From IMG/VR virus record IMGVR_UViG_3300042868_010712, positions 58,557 to 78,556 of that record: a stretch of 20,000 bases of DNA. One strand, given 5' to 3'. Positions 730 through 17,406 of the stretch are shown piece by piece; position 1 is the first letter of the stretch; each line of letters starts with the position of its first letter. The notes beneath the pieces were generated by a model that ran no database searches, was not told where the DNA came from, and saw nothing but the letters and a program-made list of their open reading frames with translations. This stretch comes from an uncultured virus (IMG/VR IMGVR_UViG_3300042868_010712) (Duplodnaviria > Heunggongvirae > Uroviricota > Caudoviricetes). The position numbers and the translations under genes were made by a program.

Positions 730-733
730 AACT

Positions 734-964: not shown

Positions 965-965
965 T

Positions 966-3023
966 ATGGAACTTCAAAAACTAATACTCAAAAACTTCAG
1001 GAGTCATAAAAATTTGACGCTTGATTTTAACGCAGGTGTAACCGGTATTGTTGGCGGCAACGGCACCGGCAAGTCGAGTATTGTAGAAGCTATAATCTTC
1101 CTCCTTACGGGGGAGGGTTATGGTAAGACTAAGGCAGATATGCTTACTGTAGGACAGGTCTCTGGTCATGTGGTTGGGCATATGCTGATAGACGGCAAGG
1201 AAGCCATCCTGGAGCGGCACACGGATACCGCAAAGGTAAACCTTAAATACGATGGCAAGGTTTACAAGAAGAGCAGTGAAGTAAACGAGCTGTGGGACCA
1301 GCTGTTCCAGATCGACAAGCATCTAGTACAGAATGTAATTGTCTCAAATCAGGGTGAGATAGCGTTACTGTTCAACGGAGACAATAGTACTAAAGAGAAG
1401 CTCTTTCAGAAGATCTTCATGGTACCTAATACAACCAAGCTCAGAGATACAGTCTGGAATGGTTATATAAAGACTGCTCCTCCAGAGTATCCTGTAAAGA
1501 ACTTGGATGAGCTTAAAAACGATCAGCAGCTCTTAGAGCAGATTATTCTGATGACCTCAGAGCAGCTGGCTACGCTGGATGCTCCTAAGCTACAGATTGA
1601 TTACAACAGGCTTACCTCTCGTAAGACTGAACTAGAGAAAGTCATCAGCGACGAGCGGGTATCGTCAGGGCTTAGCGACAAGCTTACTAGTCTTCTAGGT
1701 GAGCTAGCGGATATCTCAAGCAAGGTAGTACGTATAGAAAATAACCTAAGTAACATCAACTATGATGAAATAATAGGGGCTATTGCTGAGATGGACGCAG
1801 TAGAGCGCCAGGTAGCCCAGAAGACCAGACTGAGTGCAGAATTAGCGCAGCTTAAGCGGCCTGCAGTTAATGTTACAAAAGATGAACTTGATAATCTATC
1901 TGCAGACATTGCCCAACAGGAAGGCAAACTTAAGGAGAAAAGAGATACGCTTGCAGGATTAAACGACAAGCTAAAATCCTACGAGCAGAAGGGTCTGTCT
2001 TCTGAGACTACCACATGTCCCACATGCGGCTCAGAGCTGAAGGATACTGCTCAGGTTATAGCACACATTCAGGCAGAAGTTGATATGGTTATTTTTGAGG
2101 GAATTAAACTCAAAGATAAACTGACAGCACTGCAGAAGGATAAAGAAATTAAGCAAGAAGAGTACAAACTGGTTGAGGAATATCAAAAAGCTAGAGATAC
2201 ACTTAATCTTAAGCTAGATGCTATAGGCGAGCTTGATTATAATCCAGAAGATCATGGTTTATATAAAATAATAGCAGAGAAATACAAGAACGATAAGTCC
2301 ACGGTATCAGCGCTAAAGATCACAGAGAGTCAAAAACTACAGGATGTTAACAGCGTAAGGTTGGCTATTGCCGCCCAGCGTGTATATGATGGAGCACATC
2401 CTGTAGGAGCAGAGGCTGAGCTTAGTGAGGTTGACACAAACCTGGCATCTGTATCCCGAGGTATACAAGCAGCCAAACAGCTAGAGATAGACCTGGCTGT
2501 AAAGACACAAGAGCTTAAAACTCGCCTAGAAGATATTAGGGAAAATCAGGAGTATATTGAAAAGAATAAAAAGCGTGAAGAGTATACAAGTACCCTAGAC
2601 GCTATTTATGACATTTTCCATCCTTCCAAATTTCCAAGAGCCTTGATCCAAACCTACAGTTCTACTGTAACTGAGTATATGAATGAGGTATTGGCTTCAT
2701 TTGATTTCCCATACACAGCCAAAGTAAACGAAACTTTCGGAATTGATATATTCAATGAAGAAGGTTTACAGCTGCCTGCTGTATCAGGCGGTCAGCAGGT
2801 TATGGTCGGCTTTAGCTTACGTCTAGCGCTACATAACATGTTCGTAGGAGCATTCCCGTTCATGATTGTGGACGAGGGCAGCTATGGACTGAACGCAGAA
2901 AACAGCAAGAAATACTTCGAGATTATTCGAAGCCTGAACAAAACAAGCAAGTTCAAACAGGTGATCGTCATCGACCATCACCCTGAGTTGAGCGATTACG
3001 TAGACAACACTATTAACTTATGA
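966..3023 (+). CDS. Rad50/SbcC-family (T4 gp46-like) SMC-type ATPase, recombination nuclease subunit
   Basis: N-terminal LKNFRSH, Walker A GGNGTGKS, Q-loop SNQGEI, long coiled coil with central zinc hook CPTCG, signature VSGGQ, Walker B MIVDEG and H-loop VIDHH. Confidence 0.93.
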   Translation: MELQKLILKNFRSHKNLTLDFNAGVTGIVGGNGTGKSSIVEAIIFLLTGEGYGKTKADMLTVGQVSGHVVGHMLIDGKEAILERHTDTAKVNLKYDGKVYKKSSEVNELWDQLFQIDKHLVQNVIVSNQGEIALLFNGDNSTKEKLFQKIFMVPNTTKLRDTVWNGYIKTAPPEYPVKNLDELKNDQQLLEQIILMTSEQLATLDAPKLQIDYNRLTSRKTELEKVISDERVSSGLSDKLTSLLGELADISSKVVRIENNLSNINYDEIIGAIAEMDAVERQVAQKTRLSAELAQLKRPAVNVTKDELDNLSADIAQQEGKLKEKRDTLAGLNDKLKSYEQKGLSSETTTCPTCGSELKDTAQVIAHIQAEVDMVIFEGIKLKDKLTALQKDKEIKQEEYKLVEEYQKARDTLNLKLDAIGELDYNPEDHGLYKIIAEKYKNDKSTVSALKITESQKLQDVNSVRLAIAAQRVYDGAHPVGAEAELSEVDTNLASVSRGIQAAKQLEIDLAVKTQELKTRLEDIRENQEYIEKNKKREEYTSTLDAIYDIFHPSKFPRALIQTYSSTVTEYMNEVLASFDFPYTAKVNETFGIDIFNEEGLQLPAVSGGQQVMVGFSLRLALHNMFVGAFPFMIVDEGSYGLNAENSKKYFEIIRSLNKTSKFKQVIVIDHHPELSDYVDNTINL

Positions 3024-3118
3024 GTACGAGAACACAAACAAGAACAAGAAGCGTCACCAGAGGAAACGTAACGATTCGTAAAACAGTAACAATCAGTAGA
3101 ACAGTAAAGCGTAAATAA
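3020..3118 (+). CDS. 32-aa Arg/Thr-rich basic microprotein
   Basis: Not in the ORF track. Translates to MSTRTQTRTRSVTRGNVTIRKTVTISRTVKRK*. The start overlaps the SbcC stop (ATGA 3020-3023) and the stop overlaps the next start (TAATG 3116-3120), so it fills the gap exactly. Confidence 0.7.
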   Translation: MSTRTQTRTRSVTRGNVTIRKTVTISRTVKRK

Positions 3119-3339
3119 TGAGTGATACTAAAAGACCCTGGACAATAACTATGGATAAAACCAGAATGACTGCGCCACCGCCGCTAGGTCCTGGTTTCTC
3201 TATAGATGAGGCTGAAATTGCAGACTCGATGAGTATAACGTTTTCAGCCTTTAATGATCTTGGTGACGATTACACTATCTTCAATTTACACGCTAAAGAT
3301 GGCTCAGTTGTAGCAACAAGAAAAATTAACGGATATTAA
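3118..3339 (+). CDS. Hypothetical protein (73 aa)
   Basis: ORF track; TAATG coupling to the upstream microprotein. Confidence 0.7.
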   Translation: MSDTKRPWTITMDKTRMTAPPPLGPGFSIDEAEIADSMSITFSAFNDLGDDYTIFNLHAKDGSVVATRKINGY

Positions 3340-3341
3340 GC

Positions 3342-3497
3342 ATGAAACATATAACTGACGAGATTGACAAAGCAATAGCTGAATTGCTAGTCTCTACCAA
3401 AAATAACGCAAAGCAGATAGCGAAAAAGACGCTGCTTAAAGTACTAGCGGATTCTCCGCCAAAAAGCAGTAAAAAGAAAAAGCACAAGCTTATCTAG
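3342..3497 (+). CDS. Hypothetical 51-aa Lys-rich protein
   Basis: Not in the ORF track. Translates to MKHITDEIDKAIAELLVSTKNNAKQIAKKTLLKVLADSPPKSSKKKKHKLI*. It fills the gap between 3339 and 3502 and ends in tandem TAG TAG. Confidence 0.6.
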   Translation: MKHITDEIDKAIAELLVSTKNNAKQIAKKTLLKVLADSPPKSSKKKKHKLI

Positions 3498-3501
3498 TAG
3501 C

Positions 3502-4959
3502 ATGAACATAAAGATCGTTCGATTTGATGGCGGGCTAAAAATAAACCCATGTCCTGCATACGTTTCAAAGTTTCTCAAGTATCATCATAGAGAAATGAAG
3601 AGTATTGGGTACCAGCGGCAATGCGTGTTTGTTGAAAAATTACTATACGCTACAGATCAGGACGGCTCTATATATACGCTACCAGGTTTTTATCACAGCC
3701 TGGTAGCGTTAATAGGTAAGCAGATGGATACTGTGGAGACGGAAGATCTCAGGACACCCATGCCTGACCCTGATTGGGCTAGCGTTAAAAAGATAAAGCT
3801 TAGAGACTACCAAAAAGAACCCACCTTAGATCTGATATTCAAAGGAATGGAAGACAGTGGGGTAATTAATGCTACTGGGGGGTTTGGGAAGACACACATC
3901 CAAGCTATCACTTACGCAGCGTGGAATGGTCTGAATACAATTCTAGCCATACCTCTAAAGCAGGTGGTCCTGCAGACGTATGAAAAGTTTAAGCAATTTT
4001 TCCCTGATAAACATATAGGTATAGTTGGCGACGGTAAACATGATATAAGTAATGATATTACTATAACTACGTTTAGGTCTTTACCCAGCTGCGCACTAGA
4101 GAAATGTCAATTGCTTCTAGTTGATGAAATGCAGTCTGCAGGTCAAGAGACTTTTCAAAACGCACTAAAACAAATGAAGCCTTACAGGGTGTTCGGCTTT
4201 TCAGCTACCACGGAAGGTATATTCAACAACACAGACAAGCTGTTAAAGGGCCTGTTTGGTGATGACCTGATATACTTCCCATACGAGGACGCTGAGGAGG
4301 CCGGCGCGGTTGTACCTGGTATGGTGTACATGGTCAACATGCCTGAAGACTTATTTATTGAAAATTATAATAATTTTGAAAGCAAGTTAAAGTACGGAAT
4401 TAAAAGGTGTGATAAGCGCAACGAGATCATAGGACGAGTATGCTCCTTGATTCCAAAAGAGTGGCAGACTATTGTATTTATTGACCATGTTAAAGATCAT
4501 CTGATTCCTATGTACAAGTATATGCCTAAAGAGACAAAATACCTGCATAGGGAGACCAGCAAGAAAAACGTAGGCGCATTTGCACTGACGCCGAAGCAGC
4601 AAAATAAAACAATCGAAGAATTCAGTAATAACGAGTTTCAAACATTGATAGCTAGCGATGCGTTTAGAGCAGGTGTAGATATTCCTAACTGTCGTGTAGT
4701 CATTCAGGCTAGCGGCGGAAGCAGTAAAGTAGAAGTATTGCAGGAAGCTTACAGGGGAAGCCGAATACTTACGAAAGAACAGCGTGATAAATTTGGTCTT
4801 TCAGAAAAAACGCATTTTGTGCTTGTAGATTTTATGGACAACCATGATCCTACACTAGAGGCAATGGCGAAAAAGCGGAAAAAGTATTATGAAGAGCAAG
4901 GATGGACAATCACTACAGTTGATCGCCCCGAAGACATAACATGGAATAGACAAAAATAA
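3502..4959 (+). CDS. Superfamily 2 DNA helicase (UvsW/XPB/ResIII-like)
   Basis: Q motif LRDYQ, Walker A ATGGFGKT, motif II LLLVDEMQ, motif III FSAT, motif V RAGVDIP and motif VI QEAYRGSR. Confidence 0.9.
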   Translation: MNIKIVRFDGGLKINPCPAYVSKFLKYHHREMKSIGYQRQCVFVEKLLYATDQDGSIYTLPGFYHSLVALIGKQMDTVETEDLRTPMPDPDWASVKKIKLRDYQKEPTLDLIFKGMEDSGVINATGGFGKTHIQAITYAAWNGLNTILAIPLKQVVLQTYEKFKQFFPDKHIGIVGDGKHDISNDITITTFRSLPSCALEKCQLLLVDEMQSAGQETFQNALKQMKPYRVFGFSATTEGIFNNTDKLLKGLFGDDLIYFPYEDAEEAGAVVPGMVYMVNMPEDLFIENYNNFESKLKYGIKRCDKRNEIIGRVCSLIPKEWQTIVFIDHVKDHLIPMYKYMPKETKYLHRETSKKNVGAFALTPKQQNKTIEEFSNNEFQTLIASDAFRAGVDIPNCRVVIQASGGSSKVEVLQEAYRGSRILTKEQRDKFGLSEKTHFVLVDFMDNHDPTLEAMAKKRKKYYEEQGWTITTVDRPEDITWNRQK

Positions 4960-4980
4960 CGTATGAATGGAGTATGAGAT

Positions 4981-5253
4981 ATGACATACGAAGAAAAAAA
5001 TAAACTACAGCGTGAAAAAGACATAGAGCGCGTAAAGGAAGCGCTTATTGTACTGCAGGCTTATTGGCTAGAAAGACCATATCTTAGGCTAGGTCAGCTA
5101 GTTATGAACGCCTTTCATGTTCTGCCGGAATACACTAAAAATCCTGAACCTGAAACTGCTGATGTGTTCTATTTACCGGACAATAGGCTGCTGGAAGGTT
5201 TATCCAAACTAGTAGAACAAGAACGTGAATCAAAGAGTAAAAGAACTACTTAA
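4981..5253 (+). CDS. Hypothetical phage protein with W-x3-P-x-LRLGQL motif (possibly YihD/DUF1040-like)
   Basis: IERVKEALIVLQAYWLERPYLRLGQLV...DVFYLPDNRLLEGL resembles a widespread small phage family. The family assignment is from memory. Confidence 0.6.
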   Translation: MTYEEKNKLQREKDIERVKEALIVLQAYWLERPYLRLGQLVMNAFHVLPEYTKNPEPETADVFYLPDNRLLEGLSKLVEQERESKSKRTT

Positions 5254-6157
5254 GCTAAAGTTCGGAAAAGTAAAAAGCGTGTCGGGAGGCAGTTATAGAA
5301 TTGCTTGCCCGACATGCGATCCGAAGAACAGCAAGAAGATGAAGAGGTACATCAACCCTGGATGGACCCAGAGTAGGTGTTTTATCTGTGAAGAGGCTAT
5401 CCCTATACAAGAACTCCTTGGTGAAAATATAGTACTAGAAAGGGCTACGGAAAACGAAGAAGAGACCGAGTATAAGTATGCCAAGATATTGCCGTACGAA
5501 AGTGCTGTAAAGCTCAGTGACATGAGTAAGGCTTCGCCCGTAATAGATTTCTTGACTAAAGACTATCTATTTAACTTTGCGTACTACGACAGTCTAGGTA
5601 TCAGATACATTCCAGCCGGCTGCGGTAAAAATATCAGTTTCGATAGCGGGTTTACAGTTAACACTAGCGAAAGCTTGTTCTTTCCTGTATTCGCTAAAGA
5701 TAACTCGTATGCAGGCTGGCAGTTAAGATTTATACCTGGTACATGGAATGGAGACAGATTCCAATTCATGCGATACATGCACCTGTTTCCGAAGGGTAAC
5801 TATTTATTCAACTATGCTGTTGCTAAGCAGTATAAAGATGTAGTAGTTGTGGAGGGAGTAAAAAAAGCATTGAAACTTGGTAACGCTGTAGCTACTTTGG
5901 GTAAAGGTATATCGATAGCTCAAAAGCAGCTAATCCAAGAGTGGAAAACAATAACGCTAATACTAGACGGAGAAGATAATACGCAGGAGCTTGCTAGAGA
6001 AATTCAATCAGAGTTTATCAGCAACGGTAGAAAATGCGTGAATATTGATCTTAGAGCCTATGGCTTTGAATCACCTGACGACGCAACATCCGAGCAGCTT
6101 CAGTATATTATTCAGAAAGAACATGAACGACAAAGACCCAGATCCTCAGTTGGTTAA
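5225..6157 (+). CDS. DNA primase (zinc-binding domain plus TOPRIM)
   Basis: GTG start. Zn ligands CPTC and CFIC, FFPVF...GWQLRF core, YLFNY, TOPRIM VVVVEGVKKA, ATLGK and LILDGED. Lies near the SF4 helicase and polymerase. Confidence 0.85.
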   Translation: MNQRVKELLKLKFGKVKSVSGGSYRIACPTCDPKNSKKMKRYINPGWTQSRCFICEEAIPIQELLGENIVLERATENEEETEYKYAKILPYESAVKLSDMSKASPVIDFLTKDYLFNFAYYDSLGIRYIPAGCGKNISFDSGFTVNTSESLFFPVFAKDNSYAGWQLRFIPGTWNGDRFQFMRYMHLFPKGNYLFNYAVAKQYKDVVVVEGVKKALKLGNAVATLGKGISIAQKQLIQEWKTITLILDGEDNTQELAREIQSEFISNGRKCVNIDLRAYGFESPDDATSEQLQYIIQKEHERQRPRSSVG

Positions 6158-8108: not shown

Positions 8109-10808
8109 ATGAGCGATAAAAAAGAAAAAATAGAGGTACAGCCTACCTATAAAGAAAACAGTCAGCCTGAACTAATGATTATTTTTTCTCACCCAGGGAA
8201 AGATGATCTAGAAGAAAGGGCGTTCGGTAAAAAAGGTATGGCTGAAGAGGTATTGTCTGCGCTAAATGCTGCAGATATACCTCTTGATAAAGTGTACTTT
8301 ACAGGAATGGTGAGGTATGGAATTGGTAATAAGCCTAAGCCGTCAGCAGAGGATATAGAATATTGGTCAGCCAAGCTGGACGAAGAAATTGCTGCAGTTA
8401 AGCCTAAACTCATCATGCCTTTGGGTGCTGAAGTATTCAAACGCATCATGCGTACGAATATTAAAATGGGTGATTATGTAGGCGAGATCACTGATACACC
8501 CTACGGTAAAGTTCTGGCAAACTATGCTCCTGGGATGATCGTAGTGATGGATCCTACTAAGCGTCCTGAGTTCAGGGAGATATTCGTATTGGCTAAAAAG
8601 GCGTTAGATAACAATTTAAACTATAGAGAGTTTAAGTATGTGATCATAGACGATCCTAAAGACAATATCGAGATATTGAACAACTACATTGCCCGAGGTG
8701 AGTTTAAAATAGGCTATGACGCTGAATGGTACGGAGATAAGTTTACAGACGACGAGGTAATGTATGAGTTTCAATATAGCTGCCAAAGAGATTTTGCAGT
8801 GATCTTGAATATCTCTAAAGACGGCTCCACAGAAAACCGAGAGCTTCTAGATACGATGAAGATCATGCTAGAGCACCCTAAAGCCCAGCGTATGGGCTGG
8901 AACATAAGGGCTGACGATCTACGCTTGAGGCATAGAGGATTTAATTTACCTGACGAAACGCTAGCGTTTGACGGTATGAAGGCTGTGGCTTTCTTTGACT
9001 CTAGGCTCAGTAAGGGGCTAGAAACGGGGATTAAGCACTTTACCGATTATGCTCCATACTATACAGCATTAAACAGAAAGGTTAAGGAGCATAAGCTTGG
9101 TAAAGCAGAAATGGCTAAGCTTAAGTTTTTGGAGCCTGACATATACCATCACTATTGTGCTGGTGACGCTGTGAGTCATCGTGAGGCCTGTCTGAGGATG
9201 ATGGAGATTTTTCCGGAAAAACTCAAAGATCTATACTACAACGTATATTTGCCATTAACCCATTACTTTACAGATATGGAGTTAACAGGTATTGCTGTTG
9301 ATAAGCAGGTGCTAGAAGATCTTACTGATAAGTATCTAGAAAAATATAACGCACTCAAAGATGAGCTTGTTGTCTTTCTAAAAGATGAGTTTGGTGTAGA
9401 AGAATTTAATCCTAATTCTGCTCCACAGAAAAAATCTTTGCTTTTTGAGACACTACGCGTAACTCCAGCCTACTATACAAAGTCAGGCAAATCTCCAAAG
9501 TCTAAGGCGTGGTACGATAAACAGAAGCCACAGACTCAAAAAATGTACGAGCCCAGTACAAACGGCAAGAGTCTATCTACAATAAAATTCCAGCTTGAAG
9601 AGGAGCTAGATAAATACCCAAACGACCCTGATATCATGAGGGTACATAAAGCAATTACTCTACTGCTTAGCGTAAGTCGTGTAGGCGTATTTGCTACAAA
9701 GTTTTTATCTAAAAAAGGTGTAGTGCTCGACCCTGAGTCAGAGCTAGATGAAGATATTGATGAACCCTTGAAGCAAAGCTATTGGGCAGCTATCTGTAAT
9801 GATGGTCGCGTTCATGCTAGCTTCTTTGAATGCTTAAAGAACTTCAGAGCTAGTAGTAGTCCTAATGTTCAGAATCCCGCTTCAAAGGTTTTAGCGTATA
9901 TTCCAGATATATTCGTTCCAGGGTATAGCAAACTGAGCAGCGAAGAACAGCAATCGTGCAGCAAAATGCTACCTAAAAACATTAGGAATATTTTCTGTAC
10001 AGGCAACCCTGACTATTATTGGACAGAGCTTGACGTAGCTGGGGCAGATTTGGCTATTATGGCCTTTTTGTCTAGAGACGAAGACTTTATTCACGATATC
10101 AGAGCAGGCAATTTCCATCAAACAAAGATGCGAGAATACTTCAATGACGCTACCCTCACAAAGAAAGATGTGAGTAAGTATGTGATCGCCAAGAGTATTA
10201 CTTTTCGAGTCTCGTACACAGCCGGGCTAAAATTCGCAGCAATGCCCATTCAAGCTGATATTTATGCTGAGAATGGCTTGCATGTAGGATTACATACTTT
10301 AGAGTATGCGCTTGAGACTTGGGAGAGATATCGCAAGTACATGGCCTACAGAGACAGATGTACTGACGAAGTTAAAAACCATAAGCGTATCACGAACGCC
10401 AGAGGGTTGGTTTTAAACTACGAAGAAACAGATAATTTCGGTATTCTTGCCGGTTGGATGAATGAAAGCTTGGCTTTTCCCGTGGCCAGCGAGCTTGCAT
10501 GGTTTATGTGGGAGTGTTCTGTAAATCTAAAAAACCTTCTAAAGAAAGAAGGCTTATGGATGAAGTACATATACCCAGTAAATACTGTGCATGATGCAGG
10601 CTATTGGGCTGTGCACAAAGATTTGGTAAATGATAATTATATCCAGGAAGTTCTCAAATATGTATTCTGCCACCATACAAAGCTAGCCACCGGAGATAAT
10701 GTAGGTTGCGAGCTGGCCATCATGGATAGATGGAAAGGTAAAGAAAAAGTATTTGAGAGAGAAACAGCCTGGAACTTTGAAAAGAACACATGGGAATGGA
10801 AAAAGTAA
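8109..10808 (+). CDS. Family A DNA polymerase with N-terminal UDG-like domain and 3'-5' exonuclease
   Basis: The N-terminal ~165 aa are UDG family-4-like (FSHPG, VYFTGMVR, KPSAEDI, LDEEIAAVKPKLIMPLGAEVFK). ExoI YDAEW, ExoII GWNIRAD, ExoIII YCAGD; DMELTGIAVD; FNPNS; RASSSPNVQN; motif A ELDVAGADL; motif B AKSITFRVSY; motif C TVHDA. Confidence 0.92.
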   Translation: MSDKKEKIEVQPTYKENSQPELMIIFSHPGKDDLEERAFGKKGMAEEVLSALNAADIPLDKVYFTGMVRYGIGNKPKPSAEDIEYWSAKLDEEIAAVKPKLIMPLGAEVFKRIMRTNIKMGDYVGEITDTPYGKVLANYAPGMIVVMDPTKRPEFREIFVLAKKALDNNLNYREFKYVIIDDPKDNIEILNNYIARGEFKIGYDAEWYGDKFTDDEVMYEFQYSCQRDFAVILNISKDGSTENRELLDTMKIMLEHPKAQRMGWNIRADDLRLRHRGFNLPDETLAFDGMKAVAFFDSRLSKGLETGIKHFTDYAPYYTALNRKVKEHKLGKAEMAKLKFLEPDIYHHYCAGDAVSHREACLRMMEIFPEKLKDLYYNVYLPLTHYFTDMELTGIAVDKQVLEDLTDKYLEKYNALKDELVVFLKDEFGVEEFNPNSAPQKKSLLFETLRVTPAYYTKSGKSPKSKAWYDKQKPQTQKMYEPSTNGKSLSTIKFQLEEELDKYPNDPDIMRVHKAITLLLSVSRVGVFATKFLSKKGVVLDPESELDEDIDEPLKQSYWAAICNDGRVHASFFECLKNFRASSSPNVQNPASKVLAYIPDIFVPGYSKLSSEEQQSCSKMLPKNIRNIFCTGNPDYYWTELDVAGADLAIMAFLSRDEDFIHDIRAGNFHQTKMREYFNDATLTKKDVSKYVIAKSITFRVSYTAGLKFAAMPIQADIYAENGLHVGLHTLEYALETWERYRKYMAYRDRCTDEVKNHKRITNARGLVLNYEETDNFGILAGWMNESLAFPVASELAWFMWECSVNLKNLLKKEGLWMKYIYPVNTVHDAGYWAVHKDLVNDNYIQEVLKYVFCHHTKLATGDNVGCELAIMDRWKGKEKVFERETAWNFEKNTWEWKK

Positions 10809-11368
10809 AATATATAAAACTAGGTAGCAATGGTCATATAGCTATAGTAGATGCTGAAGACTACGATGATCTTGTTAAACATAAGTGGGGAGTTAAAAAA
10901 GGAAAATCCACTGCATACGCAGTTAGACATAAAAAGAAAAACGAAGTACTAATAGCGGCTAAAAAGGTCCGTATGCATAGAGAGATATTATCAAAAATAT
11001 CTGAGATACCAGAAAAAATGGTTATAGATCATATAAACCATAACGGTCTAGACAATAGAAAAGCTAACTTACGAGTATGCACTGTTTCTGAAAATGTCAG
11101 GAACAGTAGAACGTTTAAAAATAAAAAAGTTAAATACAAAGGTGTTTTTATGGATCTAAGCAGCGCTAAAAACCCGTACAGGGCCTGTATCAGAGTTGAC
11201 GGCAAACGTATAAGTCTAGGACAATATCCTACACCAGAAAAAGCAGCTAGAGCTTATAATGCAGCAGCTGTGAAATACTTTGGAGCTTTTGCCTACTTAA
11301 ACGATGTGCCTGATACAGACGAAGAAGACTCAAAAGAGTTGACGCAATCCGAGCTTGAGCTGTCATGA
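10790..11368 (+). CDS. HNH endonuclease with C-terminal AP2 DNA-binding domain (free-standing homing endonuclease)
   Basis: RMHREI...VIDHINHNGLDNRKANLRVCTVSENVRN (HNH) followed by YKGV...YRACIRVDGKRISLGQYPTPEKAARAYNAAAVKYFGAFAYLN (AP2). Confidence 0.93.
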   Translation: MGMEKVKYIKLGSNGHIAIVDAEDYDDLVKHKWGVKKGKSTAYAVRHKKKNEVLIAAKKVRMHREILSKISEIPEKMVIDHINHNGLDNRKANLRVCTVSENVRNSRTFKNKKVKYKGVFMDLSSAKNPYRACIRVDGKRISLGQYPTPEKAARAYNAAAVKYFGAFAYLNDVPDTDEEDSKELTQSELELS

Positions 11369-12087
11369 CTAGGTTTAAATTGACCAACAACAGCAAAGTC
11401 AGATTTAAAGCTAATCACTATAATACGTTTAGCCTGACGCAAGGAGACCCTAAAGAAGGAGGCACATGCCCTGGTATGACAGAAGGACCAGGAGGATGTG
11501 CCGAGAAATGCTACGATAAAAATCTAAGAAAGTTATATAAAGCATACGCTAGTGTTGAAGATCACAACACTTCACTAGTAGTAGATAAATCTCCTGCAGA
11601 TATGTATGAGACTATCAAGAATTCTGTAATGTACTGGTTGTTAAGTGGAGGCAATAGTACTCCCTACTTCCGCATACATACAGGAGGAGATTTTTATAAC
11701 GAGGAGTATGCGAAAGCATGGGTCAAGGTAATGCAAGAGTACCCAGGAATAAATTTTTGGGCATACACCAGATCATTGTTTTGTGTTCCTATTCTTGCAG
11801 AAGTTAAAAATTTAACCTTGTATCTAAGCTGCGACCCAGTTAACAAGGACAAAGTACTGAAAGTATACTCAGGCTATAGAAATTATCACAACATAGCAAT
11901 AGCGTGGATGGGTAATGAAATTCCTGAAAATTTATTTTCAGACAAAGCTTTTTTAGTTTGCCCTGAAGTTACGGGTAAGCTAAAAAATACAAAGACGGAA
12001 GGCGCTTGCTCTAGATGTAGAGCTTGCGTTGACCGTAAACTAAAAAACGGAAAAACAAGACACATACAGTTTCCTATCCACAGGTAA
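11365..12087 (+). CDS. Phage 'gene product 88'-like Cys-rich protein (putative Fe-S, radical-SAM-like)
   Basis: TCPG-x7-CAEKCY, FRIHTGGDFY, FWAYTRS, NLTLYLSCD and C-terminal CP...CSRCRAC match my recollection of the Gp88 family pattern. Confidence 0.7.
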   Translation: MTRFKLTNNSKVRFKANHYNTFSLTQGDPKEGGTCPGMTEGPGGCAEKCYDKNLRKLYKAYASVEDHNTSLVVDKSPADMYETIKNSVMYWLLSGGNSTPYFRIHTGGDFYNEEYAKAWVKVMQEYPGINFWAYTRSLFCVPILAEVKNLTLYLSCDPVNKDKVLKVYSGYRNYHNIAIAWMGNEIPENLFSDKAFLVCPEVTGKLKNTKTEGACSRCRACVDRKLKNGKTRHIQFPIHR

Positions 12088-12132
12088 TAGTCTGCAAAGG
12101 TGACTGTATTAACAAACAAAAAAATAAATAGT

Positions 12133-12426
12133 ATGACCAAAAAATCATCAAGCAAGAACAAGCCCTGCAAAACAACCAAGTGCGCCACAACAAAGGCAAA
12201 AGCTTACAATGTGCACACAGAAGAATTCAATAACGGTGCATTTGCTCGCTATATTCGACTGAATAACAGCAAGCATTACTTCATCTCTGACCTAGTCAGT
12301 CATTGGGGTCGTGGATTTGTGGACAGCTTGAAAAGCGTTCTCAAGCTCCGCATTAAACACAACAACAACAGTCAAGAGCGTCGTCTTGTGAGTGCGTCAG
12401 AATTACGCACACTCAAGTTGGCATAA
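12133..12426 (+). CDS. Small basic protein, possibly Bro-N-like DNA-binding domain with Lys-rich N-terminal tail
   Basis: ATG 12133 is preceded by AAAATAAATAGT (the track starts at GTG 12100). The pattern F-N-N-G-x-x-x-R-x-I...HYFISDL...Q-x-R-x-L-V-S-x-S-x-L resembles Bro-N. Confidence 0.5.
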   Translation: MTKKSSSKNKPCKTTKCATTKAKAYNVHTEEFNNGAFARYIRLNNSKHYFISDLVSHWGRGFVDSLKSVLKLRIKHNNNSQERRLVSASELRTLKLA

Positions 12427-12435
12427 TTTCCCTCC

Positions 12436-12457
12436 AAATGTTCCCCCCAGAACATTT
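12436..12457 (+). promoter_or_regulatory. 8-bp hairpin in the leader of the Ubl gene
   Basis: AAATGTTC-CCCCCA-GAACATTT perfect inverted repeat followed by an unstructured A/C-rich leader. Function is not known. Confidence 0.35.
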
Positions 12458-12505
12458 AGTCGCAGAAAAACAACAACACACAACTCAGTAAACACTAATA
12501 TTATT

Positions 12506-12766
12506 ATGAACACATACAAAATCGAAATCGCAGACAAGACCGGACACACAACTGTAGCTGACCTGACGCTAGATCAGGCAGTAGACGGAATTCTGGAGCA
12601 CGCCGAGAACAATGCCCGCTGGGTATTCATTAACGGCGAAAAGTTTGAGTTCCAAGGAACCAACTATCGTGCAGAAGAGAACCTCCAAAAGCTTCGAGGC
12701 AAACTCGAGGCAGTGGAAGATCCTGCTGTGCTCCTGACCGGTATTCTGATTGGCGGTCTCAAGTAA
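12506..12766 (+). CDS. Ubiquitin-like (beta-grasp, ThiS/MoaD/Ub superfamily) protein with GG motif and 2-aa C-terminal extension (86 aa)
   Basis: Likely start ATG 12506 (MNTYKIEIADKTGHTTV...). Pattern strand-strand-helix (LTLDQAVDGILEHA), then WVFINGE, then terminal strand VLLTGILIGG-LK*. Neighbouring JAB and E1 genes support the call. Confidence 0.8.
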   Translation: MNTYKIEIADKTGHTTVADLTLDQAVDGILEHAENNARWVFINGEKFEFQGTNYRAEENLQKLRGKLEAVEDPAVLLTGILIGGLK

Positions 12767-12788
12767 ATCAGACAGATCAATTAAAATC

Positions 12789-12826
12789 AAACCCCCTGAT
12801 GATTGCTCATCAGGGGGTTTCTTTTT
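12789..12826 (+). terminator. Intrinsic (Rho-independent) terminator after the Ubl gene
   Basis: Perfect 14-bp inverted repeat AAACCCCCTGATGA-TTGC-TCATCAGGGGGTTT running into TTTCTTTTT, starting 22 nt after the Ubl stop. Confidence 0.85.
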
Positions 12827-12870
12827 ACCCTTCGGGGGAGACACATACCACTTATAAAATAATAAATACT

Positions 12871-14973
12871 ATGGACCTACCTTATAAATCTTTTTTAAAA
12901 ATAGCCAAACAAACACAAACATTAAGCAAGTACGTCAAGACAATGGACGTAAGCATCGATAAATCTACTGAATATGTGGATTATCAATATGTACCTACAG
13001 TAAAAGTGGCATACACAAGCCTGCACTTCGATACGGTGGCAGACATGCATGCCTACTCCAAGTATCTGCCTATACCCACACATAAGCTTAAAATAGGTGA
13101 AGACATCAGATACCAAGATCTTCAAGCAAACATAGCTCAACGTGGCGGATGGGACAATACGCACGTTATGCAATTTTTAAGACAGGATAGCTCTAAGGGC
13201 GAGCCTTCCGTAAAGCTTATCCCTGAAGAAACAGCGTATGCTTTTCGCCCTAATATAATCAAGCTCGCTCCTATCGAGTATACAGAAGGAGACTATACAT
13301 ACAGAATCCTTACAAACCAGAGTAGTAAAAACTATACCGCTCGTATTCGAGTTATAGCTAGAAACGATGAGCCTATTTACGATTACCTGGATAAAGGGTT
13401 TTTCGTAATGACTGTTAATGAAAAATCTGACGAATTAACTAAGCCTGCGTTTGTTGTGTCGGACAGCTATGATATGAATACTGCACATATTTTTATGATG
13501 TGCAAGCTACAGCATAACCTAATCAGTATGCTGAAAGACGAATGCTTTGTGAGTAAGTATGACGCAGAAATGCTTAAACTTAAAATGCTCAGAAAGCTAA
13601 CTCCTGAAGCTAAAGCGTCATACTTGAAGCATTCGAAGGCGATTGATGAAGACTATCGTAAGAATACTACACTGGTAGTAGTTGGGAAATTGCTTAGCGG
13701 CGAAATTAAAAAAACGACTATTAGAGAAGTAGAGTTTTCAGCCACAACGGCGAAGTATGAGAATACTGAAATTGAAGCCGAGGACCTTATAAATGTACTG
13801 TCAAGAGACCTCGATTTTAATAGCGAGTTTGACATCTATGCTGTGGTTCAACTCTATGCTAATTATGCTGAAAAGTGCTTGGACGCTAAAGGCTGGAATC
13901 ACACAGACATTGATAACATCAATGCAGGCGAAAATGAGCTCAAAAAGAAGAGTCTGCCTACGTTTAAAATAAACGGAATCAGTATATCTGCGGCAGTTTC
14001 TTATACAGGACAAAGGTACTTAAACGACACCAGGATTAATCAGGACGAGGTGGCAAAGGCCATATACCGCGCTTCCTGCTATAGGTCAGCTGAAGACTAT
14101 AATTTGTTCCTAAAGAGTATCAGTCGCATGAGTATCAAGAGACATGATATTATTGCAAATGGCCTGCAGGTAAAGATTCACGCAGGTATGAGTGCAGAAG
14201 AATACAGAGAAGCCACTCCTGGTGTAAACGCTCCTGCGCTTAAGTTTGTAATTGATAAGCAAGATAAACGTATCAAGCTGTACATTGACGAAAATCGACA
14301 AGTGCCTGTAGATATCAGCGGGCTGATCAAGAAGGTGCAAACGATCAACTCAAAAACAAACAATAAATCGTTTTACGATAGGTCAGAAAACGCATACAAT
14401 TATATCAACAGAGATCATGTCTGGGCAGCTACAGAGCTTACAAGAGCCCTGATTGAGTTCACTACGTTCCCTGTAAAGTTTAAGAATCTGGAAGATGGTA
14501 CTGTAGTAGAAAAAGTCCAGGTTCTGATATCTAAAGACGACGTCGCTAAACTGTTGAAGGTAGTTGATGACCAGAACAAAGCTAAAATCGAAAGATCTAA
14601 GCAGTTCTTGAGTACTGCAGTAAAGCTTACAGGAGCTGAAGAAATTGAGTTCTTGGGACAAAAGGCCTATAGGGTAAAGGGTAGCCTTAGAGAATACGCT
14701 ATAGTCATCAGTAACGCCAAGGTCTACGATTATGAGACAAAGCAATATCGCTGCATTGTTAATGACAGGCACTATAAAGGTGCAGGTTATGACGACGTGG
14801 CCAGCAGACTATTGGCTCTCAAGAACGACTCTGTGATGCAAGATCATATCGGCACACTGAGAGGAGCACAGGGTCAGCCAGGAGCTGAAAACGCGCACAA
14901 CGATTACAGACCTGAGCGCGACGTTCAGGACGTAATTAGTCCAATTGTAGATAAAGCATTCGAGAAAGTATAA
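12871..14973 (+). CDS. Large hypothetical protein (700 aa) within the Ubl-JAB-E1 cassette
   Basis: The track start at 12799 lies inside the terminator stem; ATG 12871 follows AATAAATACT. No canonical family recognised. The C-terminal region has YRVKGSLREYAI...YRCIV...DDVASRLLALKND. Ends 2 nt before the JAB gene. Confidence 0.85.
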   Translation: MDLPYKSFLKIAKQTQTLSKYVKTMDVSIDKSTEYVDYQYVPTVKVAYTSLHFDTVADMHAYSKYLPIPTHKLKIGEDIRYQDLQANIAQRGGWDNTHVMQFLRQDSSKGEPSVKLIPEETAYAFRPNIIKLAPIEYTEGDYTYRILTNQSSKNYTARIRVIARNDEPIYDYLDKGFFVMTVNEKSDELTKPAFVVSDSYDMNTAHIFMMCKLQHNLISMLKDECFVSKYDAEMLKLKMLRKLTPEAKASYLKHSKAIDEDYRKNTTLVVVGKLLSGEIKKTTIREVEFSATTAKYENTEIEAEDLINVLSRDLDFNSEFDIYAVVQLYANYAEKCLDAKGWNHTDIDNINAGENELKKKSLPTFKINGISISAAVSYTGQRYLNDTRINQDEVAKAIYRASCYRSAEDYNLFLKSISRMSIKRHDIIANGLQVKIHAGMSAEEYREATPGVNAPALKFVIDKQDKRIKLYIDENRQVPVDISGLIKKVQTINSKTNNKSFYDRSENAYNYINRDHVWAATELTRALIEFTTFPVKFKNLEDGTVVEKVQVLISKDDVAKLLKVVDDQNKAKIERSKQFLSTAVKLTGAEEIEFLGQKAYRVKGSLREYAIVISNAKVYDYETKQYRCIVNDRHYKGAGYDDVASRLLALKNDSVMQDHIGTLRGAQGQPGAENAHNDYRPERDVQDVISPIVDKAFEKV

Positions 14974-14975
14974 TT

Positions 14976-15410
14976 ATGTATATATTCAGATACGGTATAG
15001 AATCGTTCCTTAAAGCCATGATTGGTGCTTCTCTAGAGTGTACAAGCACTAAAGAGGAGGAAGGCGGCATTATCATGGAAAAAGATGCAGTGTATGAGTT
15101 CGTAAGAGTTAAAAATGTTTACGAAGGTACAGACAGAGCCTCAGGATTATATGAGACAGATCAAGAAGAGTTGTCTCAATTAATATTCTCCAGAGTCTGT
15201 AAAGGTTGGAAAATGCATGCCAGCTTTCATACGCATCCATCGTTCAGCCCTACTCCTAGCATCCTTGACCTGGATAAGCTGTTTCAAGGCTTTAGATACA
15301 ACATCATATGGTCACCGACACACAGAACATTCTCCTATTCAGCATGGATGGGTGAAGACTCGCATGTGACATACCTACCTATTAATACAATCGAGAAATT
15401 AATTAAATAA
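14976..15410 (+). CDS. JAB/MPN+/JAMM metalloprotease (Ubl-processing/deconjugating peptidase)
   Basis: Catalytic Glu in EEGGII, VRVKN, and exact H-x-H-x7-S-x2-D motif HTHPSFSPTPSILD. Confidence 0.92.
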   Translation: MYIFRYGIESFLKAMIGASLECTSTKEEEGGIIMEKDAVYEFVRVKNVYEGTDRASGLYETDQEELSQLIFSRVCKGWKMHASFHTHPSFSPTPSILDLDKLFQGFRYNIIWSPTHRTFSYSAWMGEDSHVTYLPINTIEKLIK

Positions 15411-15411
15411 T

Positions 15412-16008
15412 ATGAAACTAGACAAAATCGCTATTGCAGGCGCAGGTGGAATCGGTTCTAACCTGCTAAGTATTCTGTTTGACTACGGCTACAACAGAAA
15501 GCAGTTCAGTTATATGGATGTTGAAGTTGACATCTATGACGATGATACTGTAGATATTAAAAACCTACTGCATCAAAACTTTAAAATTGATGACGTAGGC
15601 AAACATAAAGTTAAGGTGCTAGAAGAAAAATATATTGCGCAAGGCGTTACTCGCAGGATGACTGAGGATGACTTCAGTAAATATAATGTAATCTTCAGCT
15701 GCGTGGACAGTATGTCGTTCAGGAAGAGCCTGTATGAGTATGGCTGGAAAGCAGGAAACGATGAGTTATTCTGGGTTGACGGCAGGTGCACTAGCCGGCA
15801 GGGAGCATTGTTTACATCCGACATGCTCAGACCCGCACTAGAGCCGTTTATCAATGACTCGCAAGAAGAAGGCGGTTGCCTTCTAGCCTACGAGAAAGAA
15901 CAGAATATCAGTCATACTCTACCTACAGTGGTAGCAGCTATGATGGTGCAGGCCTTCTTGAATAAACTTAGGGGCCAGCAAACGTTCAAGTCTGTATTCA
16001 TGGTGTAA
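15412..16008 (+). CDS. ThiF/MoeB/E1-family Ubl-activating adenylyltransferase (minimal, 198 aa)
   Basis: Nucleotide-binding GAGGIGS, YDDDTVDIKNLLHQNF, DVGKHKV, IFSCVDS, WVDGR and candidate catalytic Cys in EEGGCLL. Starts 1 nt after the JAB stop. Confidence 0.93.
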   Translation: MKLDKIAIAGAGGIGSNLLSILFDYGYNRKQFSYMDVEVDIYDDDTVDIKNLLHQNFKIDDVGKHKVKVLEEKYIAQGVTRRMTEDDFSKYNVIFSCVDSMSFRKSLYEYGWKAGNDELFWVDGRCTSRQGALFTSDMLRPALEPFINDSQEEGGCLLAYEKEQNISHTLPTVVAAMMVQAFLNKLRGQQTFKSVFMV

Positions 16009-16289
16009 TGGCGGACTTAAATGAAAAACAGCAGCAGACAATAACAGCTGAAAAATATCTTCTAGGTATCCTTGACAAGATCTGCCTAACCGTAGATCTT
16101 CGTAGGGATGAGTGGGAGTTAAACAAAGATTTGCTTATAGCCATAAGTAAAAGCTATAAGACAAAAAAGAAAAAAGATACCGCATTGTTCTATAGCTATG
16201 ATCAATGCTTCAATATGCTAAAAAAACTAAATATAAAGATATCGTCAAAGTTCAAATGGTTCACAAATCTGGAAGAACACGTAAAGTAA
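16008..16289 (+). CDS. Hypothetical basic protein (93 aa), translationally coupled to E1
   Basis: TAATG overlap with the E1 stop. Confidence 0.65.
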   Translation: MADLNEKQQQTITAEKYLLGILDKICLTVDLRRDEWELNKDLLIAISKSYKTKKKKDTALFYSYDQCFNMLKKLNIKISSKFKWFTNLEEHVK

Positions 16290-16335: not shown

Positions 16336-17406
16336 ATGGCAATCATCAAACCATCACTAAAATTCGAAGGCTCAGAACTCAATCTTACGGTATCTGCCGC
16401 TCCATACATTCAAGAATCTGTCCGTAGGGCAGTGTTCAACAAAACAAACAACCAAGAGGGCGCTTACCTGTATTTCTTGCCTGCCTACAAGGCAGACTCA
16501 TCAGGTAACGGTATCTGGTACAAGAAGATCGCAGTGCGTGACAACTTCGGTACTAACTTCAAAGAAAAATACTATGTAGCTAGCAGGTCTAACGACCCAG
16601 CTGAATACTTCGCAAACAACTTCAAGATCTTGTATCCTGAGGAAGCAAAGGTTACAGACACTGAAGTGAACGGTAGGAAGTTCAAGAAGTATCCAAACTT
16701 TGGTCGCGTTACTGAACGTGTTGTATACAACGTGGCTTTTGCTCAAAGCTTGTCTACAGGCGCGCATGTGCTAGATCTGCCACTCAGGAACGGTGCGGAC
16801 AACCTGATGAACTGGCTTGAGGGTAGGGATATGACTGGCAACAGGCGTAATCCTATCAATGATCCTGATCGTTGTGTACCTGTATTTGTTAAGCTCAAGG
16901 AAAACAGCGCCAACCCTTGGATGATTCAGATTGAAAATAATTCTCCAGTACAGTTGCCAGAGCAGCTTGCTGACAGTGATTATCTCTACAATCTAGATGA
17001 AATCTTCATAAATAAGCCTAAAGAAGAAATCATTGCAAAGCTGCGTGAGATGTATTCTGCGGATGTATTTGAGGATTGCATGAACGGTTACCCTGGGCTG
17101 ACCAAGTCTAACACAGCAAGCTTCAATGTTACAGCCAAGCAGGTTACGCAGCCTGCTGTAGAATTACCTCCAGCTAGACCTCAAATGGAGATAGCCAAGG
17201 CTGTAATTAGTAGCGCTCCTGTCGCAGTGCCTGCAATAGAAATACCTAGAGCAGCGTTGACTGCACCTGCGGTTGCCGTTAATGTTCCTCTAGTGGCAAA
17301 CATCTCTGATGTTCCTGCCGCTGTAGATATATCTTCCTTGCCACCAAATCCGATGGCAGGCAAGATTAGCCGCGCAGATGCGCTTAAGTTCATCAACCAA
17401 GACTAA
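16336..17406 (+). CDS. Probable single-stranded DNA-binding protein (gp32-like) with Pro/Ala/Val-rich C-terminal tail
   Basis: YLYFLPAY resembles the gp32-type 'RFLP' strand, VVYNVA is present, the size and low-complexity tail fit, and the gene is directly upstream of RecA with an A-rich leader. The call is largely contextual. Confidence 0.55.
   Translation: MAIIKPSLKFEGSELNLTVSAAPYIQESVRRAVFNKTNNQEGAYLYFLPAYKADSSGNGIWYKKIAVRDNFGTNFKEKYYVASRSNDPAEYFANNFKILYPEEAKVTDTEVNGRKFKKYPNFGRVTERVVYNVAFAQSLSTGAHVLDLPLRNGADNLMNWLEGRDMTGNRRNPINDPDRCVPVFVKLKENSANPWMIQIENNSPVQLPEQLADSDYLYNLDEIFINKPKEEIIAKLREMYSADVFEDCMNGYPGLTKSNTASFNVTAKQVTQPAVELPPARPQMEIAKAVISSAPVAVPAIEIPRAALTAPAVAVNVPLVANISDVPAAVDISSLPPNPMAGKISRADALKFINQD

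Follow-up and report, generated by a model that had tools for sequence, protein, structure and literature searches.

Descriptions of ubiquitin-like (Ubl) protein attachment in prokaryotes have until now presented it as a way in which bacteria defend themselves against phages. Bil (BilABCD), Bub and the Cap2/Cap3 proteins of CBASS are such anti-phage systems, and Bub acts via oxyesters according to passages from the same group of papers (PMC11601596, PMC10557695, PMC10097602). The systems share their parts list, namely a Ubl, an E1, an E2-type carrier and a peptidase, with a set of neighbouring phage genes that we describe here. They also differ from it. Bil, Bub and CBASS possess recognisable E2 domains, whereas the candidate carrier domain of the phage set belongs to a different family; and they are bacterial and defensive, whereas the present kit is the phage's own and lies in a replication module. 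There is no recognisable E2 in it, and a domain with a conserved cysteine stands in the E2's place.

Another point of comparison is the PRTRC cassette (ParB-related, ThiF-related; NCBIfam TIGR03734-03742). The best NCBIfam match of the phage E1 is PRTRC_ThiF (E 1.1e-12), yet its 47.9 bits fall short of the TIGR03736 cut-off of 144.75. The PRTRC A, B, C, E and F models match neither the tag protein, the JAB peptidase nor the 700-residue protein of the phage, and a six-frame search for Prok-E2_B gave no match. The E1 also shows a weak likeness to the E1 half of CBASS E1-E2 models (best E 1.6e-5).

Related chemistry is also known from sulfur-carrier systems such as ThiS/ThiF, MoaD/MoeB and QbsE/QbsC/QbsD. 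Like the phage kit, they combine a carrier ending in Gly-Gly with a ThiF-type E1; unlike it, they are expected to include an enzyme that donates or uses sulfur, and none was seen in the window or in the flanks of related phage loci. Qbs and CysO-Mec further pair a Gly-Gly protein bearing a short extension with a JAB trimmer. Tagging can also proceed without an E2, as for archaeal SAMP and the modification by TtuB in Thermus.

We found no description in print of a phage tagging kit with this carrier. Among the matches listed for phage, ThiF and JAB together, titles and abstracts spoke of bacterial systems alone. In the library searched, no paper contains the name DUF7737, the domain family discussed below, and among the matches listed for DUF4132, titles and the opening parts of abstracts named no tagging role.

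Four linked genes in phage replication modules

The window, that is, the whole stretch of 20,000 nucleotides analysed here, represents the replication module of an about 40% complete tailed phage. Its features are collected in Table 1.

Table 1 Features of the locus, with positions counted from the first nucleotide of the window
Feature	Position	Strand	Basis or remarks
Small tag protein of 86 aa (candidate Ubl)	12506..12766	+	ORF and translation; end ...LIGG-LK
Terminator-like hairpin	12789..12820	+	stem of 14 pairs followed by a T-run; separates the tag gene from the 700-aa gene
700-aa protein	12871..14973	+	multidomain; outside the described families
Conserved middle block (residues about 360-440)	13948..14190	+	profile positions 360-440 common to distant representatives; C403, codon 14077-14079
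C-terminal DUF7737-like domain (residues about 563-665)	14557..14865	+	holds C628, codon 14752-14754
JAB/JAMM metallopeptidase, 144 aa	14976..15410	+	intact H-x-H-P...S-x-x-D motif
Minimal ThiF-type E1, 198 aa	15412..16008	+	G-x-G-G-x-G loop; Cys156, codon 15877-15879

The initial annotation had tied the 700-residue protein to a Ubl, an E1 and a JAB, and its homologues keep that company: among 63 IMG/VR loci, which fall into two deep clades, all four genes occur together in 59. Taken singly, the tag gene is present in 62 loci, the E1 in 62 and the JAB in 60. Two of the four exceptions are contig ends; the other two (L051 and L052, with the same neighbours) lack the JAB. Flanks and internal gene order differ between the clades, one reading PolA-GP88-...-tag-700aa-JAB-E1-...-RecA and the other dUTPase-RNR-...-700aa-tag-JAB-E1-...-sigma70-PolA. 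The linkage of the four genes survives this rearrangement. In every locus looked at, the 700-aa gene lies in a replication module, surrounded by genes of nucleotide and DNA metabolism, replication and recombination. A scan of a genome collection, based on an alignment of homologues, gave 156 pattern matches, none of which was confirmed as a relative, and we therefore call the kit phage-borne.

The tag protein has no Pfam or PDB sequence match, and is marked by its end: two residues lie beyond the Gly-Gly, which a peptidase would need to take off. Of the 41 distinct tag relatives listed, 40 either end in Gly-Gly or carry it 1-9 residues ahead of the end; in the remaining one (L066) the called ORF extends far beyond the Gly-Gly placed by alignment. 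The peptidase exceeds the Prok-JAB cut-off of 25 bits in Pfam, scoring 28 (E 2.1e-6), and its motif columns are kept in 46 distinct relatives, while its best NCBIfam match, far below cut-off, is a desampylase model (E 1.1e-3). The E1 is recognised by Pfam ThiF at E 2e-17, and its Cys156 is a cysteine in 47/47 distinct relatives.

The 700-residue protein and its invariant cysteines

An ORF of 700 residues had been annotated at this position, which the ORF listing confirms, as does a cluster representative, P0001, of the same 700 residues (100% identity). The longest form of the ORF starts at an upstream ATG, 12799-14973 (724 residues), and the ATG at 12871 gives the 700-residue form. The upstream ATG falls within the terminator-like hairpin, a call that is a pattern match alone, with three such sites in the region against a mean of 3.2 after shuffling. 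The description of the protein as Lys-rich needs toning down, since lysine makes up 9.6% of its residues.

Homologues form 70 clusters, with 445 representatives at E<=1e-3, so that the feature is not a product of chance. A match to some unrelated known family was sought and did not appear: the full-length protein has no Pfam match above cut-off and no sequence match in PHROG, NCBIfam, PADLOC or the PDB. Searching INPHARED by tblastn, with the window's protein and with a distant member, gave no match either. The full-length AF2 model (mean pLDDT 85.2, pTM 0.53) found nothing in the PDB with Foldseek at E<=0.001, with no E2 in the list; in BFVD it retrieved three viral proteins (best E 1.6e-6, TM 0.15-0.24). 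Two Pfam candidates were considered and set aside as unsupported, StbA_N/ParM at residues 457-591 (E 0.036, in one member alone) and SHS2_FTSA (a weak match in two members).

What stands out in this family is a pair of cysteines. The cysteine singled out by the initial annotation is indeed encoded where it was placed, is residue 628, and proved invariant: it is a cysteine in 56/56 close homologues and in 113 of 120 distant full-length ones, the other seven having a gap there (113/113 ungapped). It lies in the most conserved stretch of the protein, residues 601-660, with a mean column identity of 0.82-0.87. The C-terminal peptide quoted around it translates exactly as given, at 14662-14829 instead of about 14659-14860. 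A second invariant cysteine, C403, is found in the conserved middle block within the pattern R-I-N..E...R-A-x-C-[FY]; it is kept in 56/56 close and 118/120 distant homologues, the remaining two being gaps. As a point against tag transfer, this second cysteine could indicate disulfide or metal chemistry.

Kinship with bacterial DUF7737 domains

The initial annotation had likened the C-terminal domain to one found in DUF4132-associated bacterial proteins. The likeness is real: the domain in question is DUF7737 (Pfam PF24879), which follows DUF4132 in five full bacterial proteins. Matches to it below the cut-off occur in 55 of the 56 phage family members (best E 9.7e-5), the 700-residue protein itself scoring 18.9 bits, or 22.1 bits in six-frame translation, against a cut-off of 27. 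When the phage domain was compared by hhalign with 15 true DUF7737 domains, the alignment reached 92.2% probability (E 5.8e-7) over 35 columns and placed cysteine on cysteine, a probability that falls to 15% if the phage profile is made of close phage sequences alone. Going by these profile comparisons, the phage C-terminal domain is probably a homologue of DUF7737.

Both domains occupy the C-terminus of their proteins, as in DRA0166 of Deinococcus radiodurans, and have the pattern V-x-G-x-(L)-x-x-Y ... Y-x-C-[IV]-V ... [KR]-x-x-x-L-x-x-D in common. The surroundings differ. The bacterial proteins carry DUF4132, whereas neither family nor profile comparison found it within the phage protein; and the bacterial loci are mostly without a nearby E1 and JAB, whereas the phage loci have both.

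The bacterial sample comprised 17 loci, 13 from genomes and four from a plasmid collection. A small protein ending exactly in Gly-Gly-stop lies beside the DUF4132-DUF7737 gene in 11 of the 17 (Actinomycetota, Bacteroidota and Deinococcus), the pair DRA0165-DRA0166 among them. By tblastn, ThiF was found near the DUF7737 gene in one of the 13 genome loci, and it is annotated in none of the four plasmid-collection loci; in one locus, from Bacteroidota, the DUF7737 gene is followed by a ThiF gene with an overlap of 4 nucleotides. Since most of these loci have no neighbouring E1, the domain may not need an adjacent one. The phage tag is not a relative of the bacterial Gly-Gly protein as far as hhalign can tell (0.8%), and that kinship was rejected.

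The DUF7737 cysteine and the Gly-Gly end of the partner vary together. One bacterial copy (L209) has serine in place of the cysteine, and its partner ends in ...AGSYW; an Acetobacter copy has neither cysteine nor serine at this position and no Gly-Gly-type partner. The swap of cysteine for serine is present in two DUF7737 copies and recalls the oxyesters described, in the passages cited above, for Bub.

In Deinococcus, DNA damage induces the genes of the DRA0165-DRA0166 operon (PMC8533742). Work on DR_A0165 has treated it as a small peptide related to stress, the passages concerned making no mention of its Gly-Gly end (PMC9650054).

Is the C-terminal domain built like an E2?

In the models, the C-terminal domain runs from a long helix through four strands and a loop holding C628 into further helices. 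This order is also that of UBC/E2 proteins, in which a helix precedes a meander of four strands, the loop bearing the key cysteine and further helices. The domain modelled by itself has a pLDDT of 82.3 and a pTM of 0.74; in the AF2 model C628 sits eight residues past the strand 618-620 and ahead of the helix 641-652.

Structure comparison with VIA placed UEV, E2 and RWD proteins among the best neighbours of the domain, at Z 3.0-4.5, and the tool itself notes that Z below 8 may reflect merely a common arrangement. In the domain-only search, 11 of the 50 rows listed have E2, UEV or RWD in their titles, and ranks 2-4 are among these. The UEV domain of Vps23 scores Z 4.3 (rmsd 4.0, 85 aligned residues), that of Tsg101 Z 4.0 and E2S Z 3.8. 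The first rank goes to VPS37A 21-148 (Z 4.4), which we take to be UEV-like as well. The full-length model led to the same set of neighbours, and none of three VIA searches gave a Z of at least 5. Chains from bacterial E1-E2-Ubl complexes likewise appear as weak VIA neighbours, namely 9eav_D of the Bub complex (Z 3.3) and 8tz0_C (Z 2.3). Foldseek with the domain model listed, in place of an E2, only one chain of an outer-kinetochore complex (rank 6, E 0.33); frataxin-type alpha/beta sandwiches (E about 0.3) are among its best rows, which are weak. Residues 555-668 had no usable match in the ESM Atlas, and querying the PDB with profiles of the C-terminal domain, of the tag and of DUF7737 returned noise or nothing. 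The models weakly support an E2-like fold.

Sequence motifs set the domain apart from E2 enzymes, which have the HPN motif and match a family profile. The initial annotation was right that the canonical HPN...C is missing: 'HPN' and even 'HP' are absent from all 700 residues. E2 families are likewise absent from the 25 most frequent of the 40 Pfam families matched among the 56 members at E<=1. In addition, some 550 residues precede the phage domain in the same chain. As with E2 genes, its gene adjoins those of an E1, a JAB and a Gly-Gly protein. Six-frame searches with UQ_con and Prok-E2_A to E, covering the record of the window and four relatives that are 93-100% complete, had no match at E<=0.1, the UQ_con search being a weak one whose control matched in no control genome. 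That no other E2 candidate was found in this record and these relatives counts in favour of the 700-residue protein as the carrier.

How the kit might work

Can these pieces be assembled into one mechanism? The initial annotation had placed the 700-residue protein in the slot of an E2/E3 or of a substrate. The invariant cysteine and the fixed linkage are in keeping with a carrier, while the structural side of that reading is weaker, with VIA Z values of at most 4.5 and no E2 from Foldseek. With confidence that we would put at about even, we regard the protein as a non-canonical, E2-like Ubl carrier and the fourth fixed part of a phage tagging kit. It is probably the step that carries the tag, because a domain with an invariant cysteine accompanies a small protein with a Gly-Gly end both in nearly all the phage loci and in damage-induced bacterial operons.

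Taking the genes, their motifs and fixed linkage, the cysteine invariance and the kinship with DUF7737 as the observations at hand, we infer all chemical steps of the kit, and its target, along the following lines. The JAB peptidase would trim the two residues after the Gly-Gly of the tag. The minimal ThiF E1 would adenylate the exposed end, possibly also holding the tag on Cys156. The tag would next pass to C628 in the DUF7737-like domain, which would do the job of the E2 with no classical UBC enzyme involved. The roughly 550 residues upstream, with C403, might then choose the target or pass on the tag in the manner of an E3. One may speculate that the kit acts at damaged or replicating DNA, a role hinted at by its place among replication and recombination genes and by the induction of the Deinococcus operon by damage.

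A different division of labour would make the 700-residue protein the kit's dedicated target or scaffold. The E1 would then activate the tag by itself, the tag would end up on a lysine (or cysteine) of the 700-residue protein, and the conserved cysteines would be structural or regulatory. Such tagging without an E2 has the precedents named above, an enzyme and its substrate would explain the four-gene linkage equally well, the evidence for an E2 fold is weak, and the best NCBIfam match of the JAB, far below cut-off as it is, points to a desampylase. Yet the cysteine of the loop is invariant across the 445 representatives and is replaced by serine in a bacterial cousin whose partner has an altered end, so C628 looks like a nucleophile and not a passive site. 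A mere target, moreover, rarely keeps a 100-residue domain as its most conserved part. We consider this arrangement unlikely.

The domain might also read the Gly-Gly tail or be a cysteine peptidase, or the protein might be a replication factor with a regulatory link to the kit whose UBC-like order arose by chance. That Foldseek puts other alpha/beta sandwiches first, with no E2, that the VIA Z values lie in a range which the tool calls common, and that the gene is always located in replication modules would all agree with this. Against a peptidase, no His or Asp that could serve as a dyad partner is kept in both DUF7737 and the phage family; the one Cys-His dyad considered was dropped because the bacterial histidine (in I-H-L-G-S) aligns to Val/Ile in the phages. 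Chance also fails to explain why two unrelated Gly-Gly proteins pair with the domain, one in phages and one in bacteria. These readings appear quite improbable to us.

Finally, ThiF might turn the tag into a thiocarboxylate whose sulfur the two cysteines move into a nucleotide, a cofactor or a DNA base, for which speak an E1 about as close to ThiF adenylyltransferase models as to PRTRC ThiF, a tag extension and JAB fitting Qbs and CysO-Mec, two invariant cysteines and neighbours in nucleotide and DNA metabolism, but such a relay is very unlikely given that the 20 ORFs of the window and the flanks of related loci include no rhodanese, cysteine desulfurase, PP-loop, radical-SAM or thiolation enzyme, that the 700-residue protein matches no sulfurtransferase family, and that the bacterial cousins belong to a DNA-damage regulon beside which no sulfur enzymes are named.

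If C628 does carry the tag, there would be a role to test for a widespread domain of hitherto unassigned function, and a new branch of ubiquitin-like chemistry could be tested with four genes in E. coli. A broader proposal, which we hold only tentatively, is that DUF7737-type domains form a new class of tag-carrying modules that have the function of an E2 outside the UBC family and hold a Gly-Gly end on a cysteine or serine. The class would operate in two settings, in damage-induced bacterial operons (Deinococcus DRA0165-DRA0166 and many DUF4132 relatives) and in a phage kit that brings its own E1 and peptidase to the replication and repair machinery. If true, this would give DUF7737/DUF4132 proteins their first function and would mean that phages run a ubiquitin-style chemistry of their own.

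As for the part of the protein upstream of this domain, the full-length VIA search gave weak neighbours for three segments: residues 1-78 resemble MinE (Z 4.7), residues 53-168 PAS domains (Z about 3.4-4.0) and residues 325-404 YkuJ (Z 4.4).

A conserved four-gene unit in viral loci

The 700-residue reading frame proposed in the initial annotation is real: it opens with an ATG, and its database homologue has the same length. The annotated cysteine codon and quoted peptide were located as well, and the canonical E2 motif HPN is missing, as had been reported. Among 63 viral loci, searched for partners by tblastn with every family member as query, the gene is accompanied by a small protein with Gly-Gly at or near its end (the tag, a candidate Ubl) in 62, by a minimal ThiF-type E1 in 62, by a JAB/JAMM metallopeptidase (JAB) in 60, and by all three in 59. 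Two loci, L005 and L009, are truncated by contig ends, and two with the same neighbours, L051 and L052, lack the JAB gene.

The clade of the window has the order PolA-GP88-...-tag-700aa-(optional 3'-5' exonuclease)-JAB-E1-...-RecA, and a second clade dUTPase-ribonucleotide reductase-...-700aa-tag-(optional ORF)-JAB-E1-...-sigma factor-PolA. Since the four genes stay together despite changed flanks and a changed internal order, their arrangement argues for a working unit rather than mere inherited synteny. The Gly-Gly is terminal or 1–9 residues short of the end in 40 of the 41 distinct tags listed; in the remaining one, from locus L066, the ORF as called extends well beyond the Gly-Gly placed by later alignment. 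The JAB motif H-x-H...S-x-x-D and the nucleotide loop of the E1 are conserved, and Cys156 of the E1 is invariant. Searches with six Pfam E2 families, that with UQ_con lacking a positive control, found no match in the record of the window or in four relatives that are 93–100% complete.

Many relatives carry additional genes within the unit. In L007, L010, L012 and L016–L023 a gene of 208–231 codons with 3'-5' exonuclease/RNase H-like Pfam matches lies between the 700-residue gene and JAB, and in L010 JAB and E1 are separated by a LAGLIDADG gene; both additions are missing from the window.

Table. Coordinates of the features discussed
Location	Feature	Position	Detail
Window	DNA polymerase A	8109-10808	Residues 17-156: uracil-DNA-glycosylase-superfamily domain
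Window	HNH-AP2 endonuclease	10790-11368	Between PolA and GP88
Window	Tag ORF	12506-12766	Plus strand, 5' of the 700-residue ORF; 86 aa, end ...LIGG-LK
Window	Terminator-like hairpin	12789-12820	Between tag and 700-residue genes; perfect 14-bp stem, then T-run
Window	Alternative upstream ATG	12799	Within the hairpin
Window	700-residue ORF	12871-14973	ATG at 12871
Window	Quoted peptide	14662-14829	
Window	Cysteine codon (C628)	14752-14754	
Window	ORF without family	16008-16289	93 aa; between E1 and RecA
Window	ORF without family	16336-17406	356 aa; between E1 and RecA
Virus record	Tail-type ORF	G000:C1:21882-32321 (L027 1882-12321)	3,479 aa
L208 (Bacteroidota)	ThiF-family gene	5055-5771	Full length; Pfam E 1.1e-64
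L209 (bacterial)	Small protein, second pair type	14545-14979	End not GG
L209 (bacterial)	Giant protein, second pair type	9330-14480	Motif Cys replaced by Ser
L216 (D. radiodurans)	DUF7737 locus	634-5921	Record NZ_OV024759.1
L217 (bacterial)	Small protein, second pair type	2873-3346	
L217 (bacterial)	Giant protein, second pair type	1-2772	

A viral family and its probable kinship with DUF7737

A homologue search returned 70 clusters, none informatively named; most are unnamed or 'hypothetical protein', and two bear stray JGI names. Run in full over 1.84 billion representatives, HMMER matched 445 at E<=1e-3, of which 303 reach E<=1e-10. No confirmed relatives were found among 185,579 prokaryote species (one genome each) and none among 50,697 deposited phage records, which leaves uncultured viral contigs as the sole known source of the family. 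Distant members share two blocks, at profile positions of about 360–440 and 545–660, and conservation is strongest in the final 100 residues ahead of the tail. Two cysteines stand out: C403 is Cys in 56/56 close and 118/120 distant members, and C628 in 56/56 and 113/120, the other two and seven being gaps.

Of the 56 family members, 55 match the Pfam family DUF7737 with scores below its cut-off. For comparison, 15 true DUF7737 domains were collected from bacterial genomes by a 16S primer scan followed by family searches; the domain occurs in 2/121 sampled Actinomycetota, 9/41 Streptomycetaceae and 3/121 Bacteroidota, and Pfam places it behind DUF4132 in five full-length proteins. Their consensus reads ...V-x-G-x-x-x-x-Y-x-I-H-L-G-S ... 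Y-L-C-I-V-P ... S-K-A-x-x-L-A-x-D..., the motif residue being Cys in 13 and Ser in two. Aligned with these domains by hhalign, the phage domain reaches a probability of 92.2% (E 5.8e-7), Cys on Cys; with close phage sequences only, against full-length bacterial proteins, the same stretch reaches 15% and no other stretch aligns. The DUF4132-associated pattern proposed in the initial annotation is thus correct, and homology of the two domains is probable.

Small Gly-Gly partners of bacterial DUF7737 proteins

Adjoining the bacterial DUF4132-DUF7737 gene is a small gene of 85–134 codons whose product ends in ...L-V-G-G or ...L-A-G-G, directly before the stop. Such a partner is found in 11 of 17 loci (9/13 from genomes; 2/4 from a plasmid collection, namely Deinococcus radiodurans and Fulvitalea). 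It mostly precedes the big gene and follows it in two loci, and the stop and start codons of the pair often overlap. No partner was seen in L203, L215, L218 and the fragment L210. The exceptions show motif residue and partner changing together: at L209, the Ser-type locus, a related small protein ends in ...AGSYW, and the Acetobacter copy lacks both the motif Cys and the small GG-type partner. In the Bacteroidota locus L208 the order is GG protein, big protein, ThiF, the last overlapping the DUF4132-DUF7737 stop by 4 nt; ThiF was not found by tblastn in the other 12 genome loci and is annotated in none of the four plasmid-collection loci. The phage tag and the bacterial small proteins show no detectable relatedness.

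A second type pairs a small protein of 144–157 residues with a DUF5724-DUF4132-DUF7737 giant. The Deinococcus pair corresponds to DRA0165-DRA0166, which one report describes as a putative operon; it places a DdrO-type motif upstream of DRA0165, at a distance of 83 bases, and shows an IrrE-dependent rise of DRA0166 upon mitomycin C (PMC8533742). According to another, DR_A0165 is a small peptide related to stress, whose C-terminal region is conserved and for which pull-downs gave 157 partners; it is said to be confined to Deinococcus and to lack a DdrO-type motif (PMC9650054). The two are at odds on the radiation/desiccation response motif and on the confinement to Deinococcus; tblastn found relatives in two Bacteroidota loci.

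A possible E2-like outline of the C-terminal domain

The full-length model is reliable at the level of single residues (pLDDT 85.2) but not in its domain arrangement (pTM 0.53), and Foldseek found no match for it in the PDB. VIA-align, run against 48,161 chains, placed residues 566–671 beside members of the UBC superfamily: VPS37A (Z 4.5), Vps23 UEV (Z 4.2), Tsg101 UEV (Z 4.1) and E2S (Z 3.5), as well as RWD and FANCL. Folded separately from 46 sequences of both clades, residues 552–700 (pLDDT 82.3, pTM 0.74) comprise a long helix, four strands, the Cys loop and helices, which is the UBC order. For this domain alone, VIA returned the same neighbours at scores no higher (best Z 4.4, none at 5), with E2, UEV or RWD titles in 11 of the 50 rows listed. 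Foldseek proposed frataxin-type sandwiches instead (E about 0.3); a re-check of its list gave UFC1 at Z 2.9 and a chain of a bacterial E1-E2-Ubl complex at Z 2.3. As such Z values are insufficient for a shared fold on the tool's own calibration, the domain model is E2-shaped at most.

A putative carrier of the tag

Can these observations be joined in one function? The tag would pass from E1 to a carrier cysteine of the 700-residue protein. We give this reading about an even chance, because the four-gene unit is fixed, no other E2 was found, the loop Cys is invariant and replaced by Ser in some cousins, and DUF7737-type domains are independently paired with Gly-Gly proteins. Counted against it are the weak fold evidence, the absence of E2 motifs, the lack of an adjoining E1 gene in most bacterial copies, and the second invariant Cys. 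Weighed on the same evidence, a dedicated target or scaffold appears unlikely, a reader, protease or unrelated role somewhat more so, and a sulfur relay run by the four genes improbable.

Genomic setting

Every long ORF of the window lies on the plus strand, and together the genes look like the replication and recombination module of a phage: SbcC-like ATPase, helicase, primase-like protein and DnaB; DNA polymerase A with its N-terminal UDG-like domain; HNH-AP2 endonuclease and GP88-family protein; two small ORFs, the 700-residue ORF, JAB peptidase and ThiF E1; and two ORFs without family, a RecA/UvsX-like recombinase and a Holliday-junction resolvase. The hairpin behind the tag gene could keep the level of the tag above that of the enzyme genes. 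The virus record measures 78.6 kb at a CheckV completeness of 40%, with the window as its final 20 kb, and elsewhere encodes a tail sheath, a large terminase and a lone tail-type ORF whose sole match is a short minor-tail-protein stretch. Near relatives are viral contigs of 180–205 kb. The HNH-AP2 gene, present in the nearest relative L001, with a 39%-identical one in L025, and missing at this place from the other loci, looks like a mobile homing-type insert. Within the clade of the window, 28 loci retain the 356-residue ORF.
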